Assembly: GCA_965242965.1 (NCBI GenBank) | Contig: OZ251518.1 | Coordinates: 576,001-640,000 of the forward strand | DNA from: Candidatus Poribacteria bacterium | GTDB lineage: Bacteria; Poribacteria; WGA-4E; WGA-3G | Direction of reading: 5' to 3' | Length of the DNA stretch: 64,000 nucleotides | Shown: piece by piece, positions 30,286 through 32,827 of the stretch | Position numbering within the stretch: position 1 is the stretch's first letter | Layout: every line of letters starts with the position of its first letter | The notes under the pieces: model-generated | What the model was told of the DNA's origin: nothing | Database searches by the model: none | What the model saw: only the letters and a program-made list of their open reading frames with translations | Translations under genes and position numbers: made by a program

Positions 30286-30620
30286 GAATCAGCTCCTTTT
30301 GCATCCAGTCTGCGCAAAACAGATTGCGCAGAACAGGCAAAACAGAATAGCCCGCGACAAAACTCCCCGTGTGATACGGAGAGTGCGCGGGCACAATGAT
30401 AGTGACAGGACGGCAGCAGCTGCCGACGCGTCGTTATGATAATAGGAAGAGTAATAGTTGTTAAGTGAGGGGGGGGTGGTTAGCGATGCGTCACGAGCGT
30501 TACGGACACGGTGAGGCGCAAAGAGGTGTCGTCCCCACGATGCGTGGAGCCTTCCTTGCACGTTCCCTATTTTCACTGAGGTTTTGACACTGCAGTTTTT
30601 CACGCTCGTTTTCCCGTTCG

Positions 30621-31349
30621 TTATCGCTTGAGTTCTCCCCACGTCACGGCGAGTTTGTCATGGGGTTCAACCGCGAGGTTTACCCCGTTAGGATTATCGT
30701 AAAGATAGACGTTGTCAATATAGTAGTGCTGGAGTTGGTTCGTATGAATCCCGAGCACCCCCATCGGATGGAGGTCCTTCGGGTCACTCCATTCTACTAC
30801 TTTTTCAAAGACGAGCGCGCCCTGCCTCTTGATGAAGAGTTGGAAGTTGTTCCCATCGCCAAGCAGCGAGAGCGTATACCACTCCTTGCTTACAACCTGC
30901 ATCGGGAATTCGGCCCGATGGTCCCGATATTCAGTCCAGGTCCCCCGGTCGTTTCCTTCGCGTTTATACCAGCGTGCGGAATTCGGGCGACCGGCACCGT
31001 CAGCCGGCGTGATGATCAGTTGATAGAAATGGTAGTCCCTGTCAGCGCGAAACAAGAGTTCCATCTTGCTCGGGAACGGATCAACCAGCAGTTGGAAATC
31101 CAGTTGGAGCCCGAAGTTTTCAAACTCTATCTTGCCGTACCCGAAGTCGACTTCGCCATTTCCATCGCCGGCAATCCGGTGGATTTCCAGTTTGCCGCCC
31201 TTCACATCCCACGATTCTTTCTGGCCTTCCCAGAAATTATTTTTCAATTTGCCTGTGAAGTCATCTGCCATGAGCAGGCCCGCCTCACTCTGCGGACACA
31301 GCAAAAGCACAGATGCTAGCAGGCAGGAAAGAATAACAATCTTTCGCAC
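30621..31349 (-). CDS. Secreted concanavalin-fold (DUF1080-like) protein with C-terminal WG motif
   Basis: GGAGG RBS then GTG 31349; DDF...W.V..G, WY.L...G..F, G.LG...YIDNV; ends LAVEPHDKLAVTWGELKR. Confidence 0.75.
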   Translation of the reverse strand: MRKIVILSCLLASVLLLCPQSEAGLLMADDFTGKLKNNFWEGQKESWDVKGGKLEIHRIAGDGNGEVDFGYGKIEFENFGLQLDFQLLVDPFPSKMELLFRADRDYHFYQLIITPADGAGRPNSARWYKREGNDRGTWTEYRDHRAEFPMQVVSKEWYTLSLLGDGNNFQLFIKRQGALVFEKVVEWSDPKDLHPMGVLGIHTNQLQHYYIDNVYLYDNPNGVNLAVEPHDKLAVTWGELKR

Positions 31350-31381
31350 AGCGATTTCCTCCGTTGAAATAAGCATTATTG

Positions 31382-31712
31382 TTGACATACTCCCTACACG
31401 CTAAAGCGTGGGGATTCAATGGTGTCGGTATCCCGTTGCTTCGTGTGGAATTCTGCGATGTGTGCGACCGACCGCACGCGTGAGATGCGCGGTTACCCGC
31501 GCCTGACACTCACTCTCACACTAGACTGATGCCCCGCCTAGATGATGGGTGGTAGATAACCGAACGATGCAGCATGACCCGACTTTCGCTCAGTCATCTA
31601 CCGTCGATGTTTTACAGGGTCTCACCTGCAACCCGCCAACGCCTCTTTCCACAGAGACAGATAGGCACCGCGACTTAGAATGCCGCGGGTGGAAACGCCT
31701 ATCTGGCAGGTT
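31382..31712 (-). ncRNA. Candidate structured ncRNA (omega-RNA-like) within the IS605 derivative
   Basis: Own promoter; stems CAGATAGGC/GCCTATCTG, CCTGCCA/TGGCGGG, GGTAGATGACTGAGCGA/TCGTTCGGTTATCTACC; ends at the right-end hairpin. Confidence 0.5.
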
Positions 31713-31718
31713 ATAGAT

Positions 31719-31747
31719 ATTATACCACATTTCTTTTTGGAATGCAA
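31719..31747 (-). promoter_or_regulatory. Internal sigma70 promoter of the IS605 derivative
   Basis: TTGCAT-N17-TATAAT with TG extension. Confidence 0.7.
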
Positions 31748-31827
31748 GTCTTTTTGATTTCATACCGTTAGCAATGTCTACATCCCGCAGTCTGAAGACT
31801 GGGGATTTGACATCAAAGATGATATTA

Positions 31828-31857
31828 ATTATAACGTATTGGAACGGCATTTGTCAA
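31828..31857 (-). promoter_or_regulatory. Native sigma70 promoter of gene 30621..31349
   Basis: TTGACA-N18-TATAAT just outside the IS left end. Confidence 0.7.
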
Positions 31858-31939
31858 GTTTTTTTGCAAAATTCCGCGAAAAATGTTATTTTTTTTATGA
31901 GACATGCCAAATCGAAAAAAGTTCGTGAAAGGATAGAGT

Positions 31940-32827
31940 ATGCAATTGAAACGTAAAACCGTAGAGCGTTGGCTGCAAACCGTGCTCGCTTTTGTGCTGC
32001 TGAGCATTAGCGTGACATGCCTTGCGGCGTTACCGCCTGCTATCGTCAATGAGAACGATGGCGGGGAGATGGTGCTGATTCCGGCAGGTGCCTATCTCAT
32101 GGGAAGCACCTCGGAACAGACTGCCGCATTGGTGGCGAAAGACGCGCGCCTCTCCCCCGATTTTTTCCACGCCGAAAGTCCGCAGCATTCTGTCCAACTC
32201 TCCGATTTCTACATCGACCGGCATCCGGTGACGAATGCGCAGTATGCCGCTTTTATGGCGGCGACCGGGCATCCCGCACCGAAGTATTGGACAGACGCGC
32301 CTCAGATGGGTGCGGCGGAACCGTTTCCGATCGGCGCGCGGCACGGCAGTCACCCTGTTGTCGGTATCTCTTACGCCGATGCTTTGGCATATTGCAAGTG
32401 GACAGGGAAACGGCTCCCGACAGAAGCGGAATGGGAGAAGGCGGCGCGCGGCGGACTCGTCAATCAGCAATATCCGTGGGGCAATGAACCCTCCCGTAAT
32501 TATGCCAACACCGGCGGCGTATGGGGAAAAGATAGGTGGTTCTGGACCGCGGTTGTCGGCAGCTTCCTTCCCAATGCTTACGGCTTGTCTGACATGGCAG
32601 GCAACGTGTTTGAGTGGTGCGCCGATTGGTATGCCGCCGATTACTATCCGCAGAGCCCATCTCGCAATCCGCGGGGCCCTGAAACCGGACAGACGCGCGT
32701 TCTCCGCGGCGGTTCGTGGAGCAACAATATCTTGGGCATTTATCAGATGCGGTGTGCTTATCGCTTCCATGCGCGTCCTGATACTCGCAATCTGATTATT
32801 GGTTTCCGCTGCGCGTTAACGCCTTAA
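31940..32827 (+). CDS. Secreted FGE/SUMF1-type domain protein
   Basis: MVLIPAG.Y.MGS, VTNAQY, RLPTEAEWEKAARG, DMAGNVFEW, RGGSW, GFRC. Confidence 0.92.
   Translation: MQLKRKTVERWLQTVLAFVLLSISVTCLAALPPAIVNENDGGEMVLIPAGAYLMGSTSEQTAALVAKDARLSPDFFHAESPQHSVQLSDFYIDRHPVTNAQYAAFMAATGHPAPKYWTDAPQMGAAEPFPIGARHGSHPVVGISYADALAYCKWTGKRLPTEAEWEKAARGGLVNQQYPWGNEPSRNYANTGGVWGKDRWFWTAVVGSFLPNAYGLSDMAGNVFEWCADWYAADYYPQSPSRNPRGPETGQTRVLRGGSWSNNILGIYQMRCAYRFHARPDTRNLIIGFRCALTP

Follow-up and report, generated by a model that had tools for sequence, protein, structure and literature searches.

A gene-less, PATE-like IS200/IS605-type element of a Candidatus Poribacteria genome with a tnpB-related omega-RNA region and a conserved structured leader

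This analysis concerns a short mobile element on the minus strand of a 64,000-nt stretch of a Candidatus Poribacteria genome (assembly GCA_965242965.1, contig OZ251518.1, positions 576,001 to 640,000; hereafter the window). With a probability of roughly 0.7, we regard it as a non-autonomous, PATE-like member of the IS200/IS605 family that was inserted 3' of a TTAAC/TTAAT pentamer and carries an omega-RNA transcription unit. It probably originated from a tnpB-only IS200/IS605 element by loss of the tnpB reading frame. Its parts follow one another in the order left-end hairpin, A-rich spacer, promoter, leader of ~110 nt, long hairpin, 165-nt scaffold, right-end hairpin and terminal TCAA. The identity, boundaries and target of the element, the homology of its 3' part to tnpB-linked omega-RNA regions, its conserved RNA folds and its distribution are established by the comparisons that follow. 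An earlier sequence-only reading had proposed an IS200/IS605 element without an open reading frame (ORF) at this place, and its claims are taken up where the results bear on them.

Seven matches to the element were found in its own genome (G000; 5.7 Mb in 2 contigs, 94.66% complete). Three are near-full copies, namely copy A, which is the element in the window (100% identity), copy B (94%) and copy C (82%); the others are a 3'-only copy, D, and three short end pieces. Copy D consists of the last ~165 nt, behind a different, near-consensus promoter. In the alignment the copies all end together at TCAA and diverge directly after it, and the right end proposed by the sequence-only reading, a hairpin followed by TCAA, is thereby confirmed in four copies. 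The flanks of copy A were found joined without the element in two genomes of the same genus (G001 and G002). These empty alleles, together with the near-full copies, bear out the view that the element is a repeated mobile unit, and they place the insertion directly 3' of TTAAT, without target duplication. A 1-nt indel in the intergenic flank leaves a doubt of +/-1 nt on the edges of the element. In copy B (L002:1452-1640; G000 C1 3705001-3705189), a palindrome of 24 nt has been inserted into the right-end hairpin loop and lengthens the stem.

The left boundary had to be moved. The sequence-only reading had taken TTGAT as target and boundary, as an ISDra2-type transposon-adjacent motif (TAM) and as the left half of the excision joint. 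However, similarity among the copies extends 7 nt beyond TTGAT on the left side, and the pentamer at this place differs in copies B and C and in the copies of the sister genome G001. Since TTGAT lies inside the element and the target is TTAAT, the proposed TTGAT joint is wrong; the empty sites give TTAAT followed by the 3' flank. The pentamer before the conserved left end was compared in 26 related loci and was TTAAC in 14, TTAAT in 2 and a one- or two-base variant in 7, the left end being not recognisable in the remaining 3. The left ends ahead of the tnpB elements of the own genome show the same target pattern. The family consensus is thus TTAAC, with TTAAT at the window locus.

The ends of the element are of the IS200/IS605 type. 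Subterminal imperfect hairpins are present at both ends on the same strand, there are no terminal inverted repeats, the target lies ~17 nt before the left hairpin, and TCAA lies ~9 nt after the right hairpin. In IS608 of Helicobacter pylori, the left hairpin is preceded at a distance of some 17-19 nt by the target, the right hairpin is followed at about 9-10 nt by TCAA, and the element inserts without target duplication and is excised precisely. The geometry is therefore like that of IS608, whereas the target pentamer is TTAAC instead of the TTAC of IS608, and neither tnpA nor tnpB is present. The largest ORF overlapping the interior is 86 aa long, in agreement with the earlier description of the element as ORF-less. 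The interior is as extensively pairable as that description had it: for the RNA from 31720 to 31362 a folding energy of -141.3 kcal/mol was computed (z = -4.74), which 0 of 100 shuffled sequences reached. No tRNA or tmRNA was detected in the element. A group I intron or IStron was considered and set aside, given no Rfam match at E <= 1 and an intergenic element with its own internal promoter. A degenerate motif pattern used to scan public genomes gave chance matches only, and 0 of the 80 fetched loci resembled the element.

The 3' part of the element is homologous to the region that spans the 3' end of tnpB genes. When 12 gene-less copies were aligned with 2 tnpB-linked sequences, three stem-loops were predicted in addition to the right-end hairpin, with compensatory change in 15 of 32 pairs. 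A covariance model of this region, R2, was built from 11 gene-less copies only. In the own genome it gave 8 matches, comprising the four cassette copies (145-173 bits), the 3' ends of the tnpB genes L010 (64.6 bits, E = 3.8e-13) and L009 (64.0 bits, E = 5.2e-13), and two weak relics. It gave 17 matches in G001, including tnpB C50 (157.6 bits) and tnpB C204 (74.7 bits), and 22 matches each in G007 and G004, which belong to other genera; in G002 it gave no matches. One of the homologous stretches in G001 is a genuine tnpB 3' end, in which the similarity runs from a conserved C-terminal coding motif through TCAA, and the right end and stems of L009 in the own genome are related to those of the element. 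That a model made from gene-less copies only finds tnpB 3' ends supports the omega-RNA reading, and the scaffold claim, along with the covariance-model check suggested for it, is upheld.

The companion check against Rfam came back empty: 0 matches at E <= 1 were obtained for positions 30500-32800 of the window, and nothing relevant was found for the scaffold and leader of 14 related loci. This null weakens only an assignment to a named Rfam family and leaves the homology with tnpB 3' ends untouched.

By homology to tnpB-linked omega-RNAs, the guide is expected directly after TCAA, where the earlier reading had put it. The 16-nt guide of each copy has its own flank as its sole exact match in the genome, and that of copy C has in addition one near-duplicate with 1 mismatch. 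This near-duplicate (G000 C1:2450723, minus strand) is preceded by letters resembling the terminus of a right end and could represent either a duplicated flank or a second copy that has decayed.

The internal promoter is present where it had been claimed, with an extended -10 TATAAT; a consensus scan did not list it in copy A because the -35 box matches at only 3/6 positions. Nearly all of the 26 related loci have an extended -10 at the same position, separated by a 17-nt spacer from a -35 box that reads TTGACA or nearly so. The tnpB genes L009 and L010 and a tnpA-tnpB element of the own genome are each preceded by a homologous left end. In the tnpB-only relatives, an untranslated leader of ~100 nt comes after this left end and promoter, and the comparison of these leaders with those of the gene-less cassettes reveals a common architecture. 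When 22 leaders, gene-less and tnpB-linked, were folded, most formed a three-way junction made of a closing helix (P0) that begins at about the first transcript bases, a long helix (P1), frequently with an inner hairpin, and a short hairpin (P2). A kissing pseudoknot pairs the internal loop of P1, or in some leaders its terminal loop, with the loop of P2. In the gene-less leaders a further hairpin, P3, contains a second copy of the P0 3' strand.

This fold is supported by covariation. In 39 gene-less leaders, 89.5% of the alignment cells were paired, compared with 38-45% when the partners were slid, and 26 of 34 pairs were changed on both sides. The pseudoknot was paired in 96.3% of cells, with one pair occurring as UA in 16 leaders, AU in 10, CG in 9 and GC in 4. 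P1 and P2, to which the alignment was not fitted, were paired in 93.4% and 98.7%, respectively, and a smaller set of gene-less leaders gave the same picture. The same design was found in 13 tnpB-linked leaders, aligned with MAFFT alone and not fitted to structure (94.0% paired versus 32-48% slid). Loop complementarity in single sequences was less telling: 14 of 22 leaders had no more than 35 of 500 shuffles as good when the loops were taken from minimum-free-energy folds, several of which were mis-parsed, and a test with a wider window was uninformative. Because these single-sequence shuffle tests are weak, the pseudoknot is claimed on the strength of the alignment counts.

In the tnpB-linked leaders, the P0 3' strand is present twice in tandem. 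Copy 1 closes the junction and reads, in 11 of 13 leaders, as a start codon (ATG in 7, GTG in 3 and TTG in 1) with TAA immediately behind it. It is followed by a purine-rich, Shine-Dalgarno-like stretch and then by copy 2, which contains the real tnpB start codon; the decoy start region thus amounts to a minimal start-stop unit, with the Shine-Dalgarno-like stretch close behind it (A13 columns 106-131; L211-L224). The 5' strand can pair with either copy, with 95.7% pairing for copy 1 and 96.6% for copy 2, and in the latter 5 of 9 pairs were changed on both sides. In the gene-less cassettes, the 5' arm of P3 is made up of copy 2, with which the 5' strand covaries as well (90.9% paired). Covariation in both of two helices that exclude each other is characteristic of a switch, in which, on this model, pairing of copy 1 would leave the real start codon free and pairing of copy 2 would hide it. 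In the tnpB-bearing relatives the leader accordingly looks like a two-state translational switch between a decoy start copy and the real start codon. Both pairings covary in the gene-less cassettes too, which indicates that the fold outlived the gene.

Between leader and scaffold lies the long hairpin P4, in whose outer stem 5 of 10 modelled pairs were changed on both sides. Copy D and one G001 copy lack this hairpin, and in other copies it contains insertions. The tnpB segment coding for RuvC-III was considered as its source, but the similarity was not significant and the idea was dropped: when 8 P4 segments were compared with two tnpB 3' regions, 25-291 of 300 shuffles were equal or better. 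The sequence-only reading had described the 5' ~180 nt as an additional structured domain. It is structured, but it is not unrelated to the rest, as its first ~110 nt have the architecture of a tnpB mRNA leader and are followed by the long hairpin. The possibility raised there that the interior is simply eroded tnpB does not agree with the data either; no significant coding remnant was found, and the RNA structure is conserved with compensatory changes.

The distribution of the cassettes was assessed with a second covariance model, R1, which comprises the leader and P3. R1 gave 324 matches (150 of them listed) in 79 of 112 genomes of the bacterial family, covering 5 of 6 genera, with up to 33 matches per genome. 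A frame of TnpB size behind the leader was found at 0 of 39 loci. A TnpB like that of L009 occurs in 99 of the 112 genomes and in 75 of the 79 that bear cassettes; with TnpB so common, the co-occurrence of cassette and TnpB says little.

On the preferred reading, the element keeps what a Y1 transposase needs in cis, namely the left- and right-end hairpins, insertion at TTAAC/TTAAT and the right end at TCAA. It also keeps a transcription unit consisting of a sigma-70-type promoter, the tnpB mRNA leader, the long hairpin and an omega-RNA scaffold that crosses the right end into the flank. A transcript of ~335 nt would be trimmed to an omega-RNA whose guide is the 16-20 nt of flank after TCAA. 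This omega-RNA would be loaded onto TnpB made elsewhere, the candidate in the own genome being an intact gene of the L009 type. After excision of the element, the omega-RNA could direct cleavage of the empty joint (TTAAT plus flank) and so favour re-copying of the element. In a gene-less cassette, the leader fold would most likely have been kept because it caps the 5' end of the guide-RNA precursor structurally and helps it to fold. That the unit is transcribed and processed, that its RNA loads onto TnpB and guides cleavage, and what the leader does are inferred here from the sequence.

The partners of the element were examined in this light. The products of L009 and L010 contain an OrfB_IS605 domain and a Cas12f1-like TNB domain and are free of stops, and L009 matches the structures of ISDra2 TnpB with E = 1.6e-28. 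The sole IS-type tnpA of the own genome is broken by 2 TGA stops into pieces of 79 aa and 65 aa, and the other Y1 protein resembles the REP-associated (RAYT) type; borrowing of TnpA in trans, as the sequence-only reading had envisaged, is thus not possible in this assembly in its present form. Intact Y1 transposase genes are present in the cassette-rich genomes G082, G114 and G132 and fragments only in G084, and none was found in G001 (86% complete). By eye, a tnpA seemed to follow the left end and promoter in L020, L023, L024 and L031; this reading is tentative at best, and the ORF listing of L023 holds no intact frame of at least 100 aa at that place.

Several observations weigh against an omega-RNA unit that is active and mobile. 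An intact IS-type TnpA was not found in the own genome at 94.66% completeness; the copies there may be immobile and the homing function idle. Within 1.5 kb of the tnpA loci of G082, G114, G132 and G084, no similarity to the cassette left end was found except for one 32-nt piece. The best-matching tnpB of G001 (C50, 3651-4892) has one internal TAG; its closest intact homolog in that genome is C204. The resident tnpB omega-RNA regions reach 64 bits on R2, compared with 145-173 bits for the cassettes, and this gap makes compatibility with the resident TnpB uncertain. A TnpB match at E <= 1e-30 is missing from 4 of the 79 cassette-bearing genomes, and the -35 box of copy A is weak. Finally, R1 gave no matches on tnpB-linked leaders with default filters and, with filters off, matched 5 of 8 loci at 6-14 bits, the best matches lying exactly on the leader. 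The homology of the two leader classes is therefore founded mainly on shared position and architecture, more than on sequence.

Such observations raise the question of whether the element is no more than an inert relic, left by deletion from a tnpB element and now decaying, with RNA-like folds that are leftovers of no use to element or host. Besides the lack of an intact IS-type TnpA in the own genome, this would fit the presence there of only three full copies, diverged to 94% and 82%, the palindromic insertion in copy B and the loss of the left end at 3 of 26 related loci. A relic would not be expected, however, to show the same deletion architecture in 79 of 112 genomes from 5 of 6 genera, nor to preserve every helix and the pseudoknot by compensatory changes across 25-30% sequence divergence, and the presence of as many as 33 near-identical copies in a single genome suggests recent spread. 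We therefore consider it very unlikely that the element is a mere leftover. The position of copy A raises another alternative, since it was inserted 4 nt after the -10 hexamer of a host promoter and 32 nt upstream of the presumed GTG codon at which the following gene, in the same orientation, begins. The element could be a mobile promoter or 5' untranslated region (UTR) module used by the host, its outward promoter and structured RNA tuning the downstream gene and the omega-RNA being incidental. No terminator-like site was found on the element's strand between its right end and the downstream gene, and several cassettes lie just upstream of same-strand housekeeping genes, those for galactokinase, MutS, ALAD, a phosphoribosyltransferase and a Rieske protein. 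Ten downstream frames were scanned in all, of which six matched host families (these five and a weak F5/8 type C match below the Pfam cut-off), four had no match and none was a TnpB. An orientation bias toward downstream genes was looked for and is not convincing: in a rough ORF-based count, the nearest long downstream frame was on the same strand at 15 of 39 loci, on the opposite strand at 8 and absent at 16. Moreover, the scaffold and right end are as strongly conserved as in tnpB-linked copies, and a promoter module would have no need of them. A host-tuning role is accordingly unlikely as the main explanation.

The conservation of the leader suggests yet another reading, in which the leader itself is the functional payload, acting apart from guide-RNA production as a trans-acting or sensor RNA, for instance as a processed small RNA or as a decoy that titrates a factor reading the switch. 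The leader and P3 are better conserved across genera than the 3' module, R1 also matches cassettes with a different omega-RNA and right-end subtype that ends in TCAC, both switch states covary where no gene remains to be regulated, and three loci keep promoter and leader without the left end. Regulatory RNAs derived from the IS200 5' UTR would offer a precedent, as far as the accessible parts of the reports go (PMC5435999, PMC12594629). Against this stands copy D, which keeps the 3' module alone behind a different promoter and indicates that the omega-RNA part, too, is maintained on its own. We give this payload reading a small probability and retain the omega-RNA unit as the preferred explanation of the element.

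A more specific role of the leader is put forward as a tentative possibility, with the odds against it. The leader may be an undescribed transposon riboregulator, in which a sensor-like pseudoknotted core and an anti-start strand toggling between decoy and real start would set TnpB output. The retention of both switch states in the gene-less cassettes suggests that the switch might also gate maturation or folding of the omega-RNA there or titrate a factor that reads the switch. If so, the cassettes would be regulators of the TnpB system and not passive hitch-hikers, and TnpB output would be tuned on a transcript that must also yield the guide RNA. To our knowledge, little is known about how TnpB elements balance protein and guide RNA from one transcript, and the leader is a concrete candidate for such control that can be tested by mutation. 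In the portions of text returned by full-text literature searches, no description of a structured tnpB leader or of a start-codon switch was found.

When set beside known systems, the element shares with the ISDra2 TnpB omega-RNA a scaffold that lies at the tnpB 3' end and extends over the right end, the flank supplying the guide. It differs from ISDra2 in its target and TAM, TTAAC/TTAAT instead of TTGAT, and in having a scaffold without a gene and without an Rfam family. According to the accessible text of PMC10055086, gene-less PATE-like IS200/IS605 elements have been reported in Geobacillus stearothermophilus and often encode omega-RNAs that require use in trans by TnpB from other elements. 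Gene-less IS605 guide-RNA elements are thus already in print, and the element itself is not new in kind. Like the PATEs of that text, it has no protein gene, ends of the IS200/IS605 type and an omega-RNA that would need TnpB and TnpA in trans. The present family adds a strong internal promoter, a pseudoknotted three-way-junction leader of ~110 nt and a long hairpin before the omega-RNA; no such 5' module was found in the text of PMC10055086, its extended-data figures aside. In the IS200 tnpA 5' UTR, as the consulted parts of PMC4513863, PMC5435999 and PMC12594629 describe it, mRNA structure blocks translation and a processed 5' RNA is made. There and, on the switch model, here, on that partial evidence, a structured transposon leader occludes a translation start and can outlive its gene as a stable RNA. 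By analogy, the IS200 5' UTR is the nearest precedent for the leader. In contrast to it, the present leader fronts tnpB and not tnpA and is characterized by a three-way junction, kissing loops and an anti-start strand for decoy and real start, and no relation between the two was found by sequence or Rfam. The added value of the analysis is the leader, with a well-supported fold and, on the switch model, two alternative states common to tnpB genes and their gene-less derivatives. The cassette family is large and conserved, the corrected TAM and the exact boundaries are needed for cleavage or editing tests with this TnpB family, and the element would offer a compact natural promoter-leader-scaffold unit for omega-RNA expression.

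Coordinates of the element, its parts and the neighbouring host features in the window
Feature	Positions	Strand	Description and basis
Whole non-autonomous element	31382..31823	-	442 bp (+/-1 nt); empty-site comparison, copy alignment, genome copies
Target, presumed TAM pentamer TTAAT	31824..31828	-	Directly 5' of left end; empty sites, 26-locus comparison
Left end	31760..31823	-	Imperfect hairpin 31782-31806; contains TTGAT 31812-31816; homologous left ends near tnpB
Internal promoter	31719..31747	-	-35 31742-31747 (3/6), 17-nt spacer, TG 31726-31727, -10 TATAAT 31719-31724; read from sequence
Leader RNA	31605..31713	-	P0, P1 with inner hairpin, P2, kissing pseudoknot, P3; R1 100.4 bits; covariation
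Long hairpin P4	31547..31604	-	Outer stem of ~17 bp; fold and covariation
Omega-RNA scaffold homolog	31382..31546	-	Three covarying stem-loops, right-end hairpin 31391-31414, TCAA 31382-31385; R2 165.6 bits
Flank-derived guide position (host DNA outside the mobile unit)	31366..31381	-	16 nt after TCAA; predicted by homology
Host promoter of downstream gene	31828..31857	-	TTGACA, 18-nt spacer, TATAAT; scan 12/12; also at G001 and G002 empty sites
Downstream host gene, in the orientation of the element	30621..31349	-	Presumed GTG start 31347-31349 behind GGAGG 31358-31362

The start codon of the downstream host gene was assigned by eye; its longest frame (to 31388) starts inside the right end of the element. 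No Pfam family was found for this gene, and the gene on the opposite side of the element encodes an FGE-sulfatase-domain protein.

Further observations were made at the related loci. GC-rich tandem repeats of ~41 nt lie upstream of copy D (L004:1130-1300; G000 C1 ~4347600-4347770), and a gene with a Y1_Tnp domain (L016; G000 C1 ~3147500-3148600) follows repeat-like sequence whose read-through translation is a repetitive peptide; together, these repeats and this gene look like a REP/RAYT system. A family of short repeats that nearly match the guide of copy D occurs at more than 25 near-identical sites with a common 8-nt left context (G000 C1, for example 1452743, 1838360, 2089441 and 4939592), and a piece similar to it is inserted within one G001 cassette (L053). 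Promoter and leader are kept at L196 (G110), L202 (G124) and L208 (G024), where the left end is not recognisable; these loci and copy D could be immobilised guide-RNA genes. Runs of 7-10-nt tandem repeats are found near the left end or inside P4 in five G001 cassettes (L046, L048, L049, L051 and L052). In G022, a cassette is immediately followed on the same strand by a T-box leader whose 110.9 bits exceed the gathering score (L025:1977-2220).

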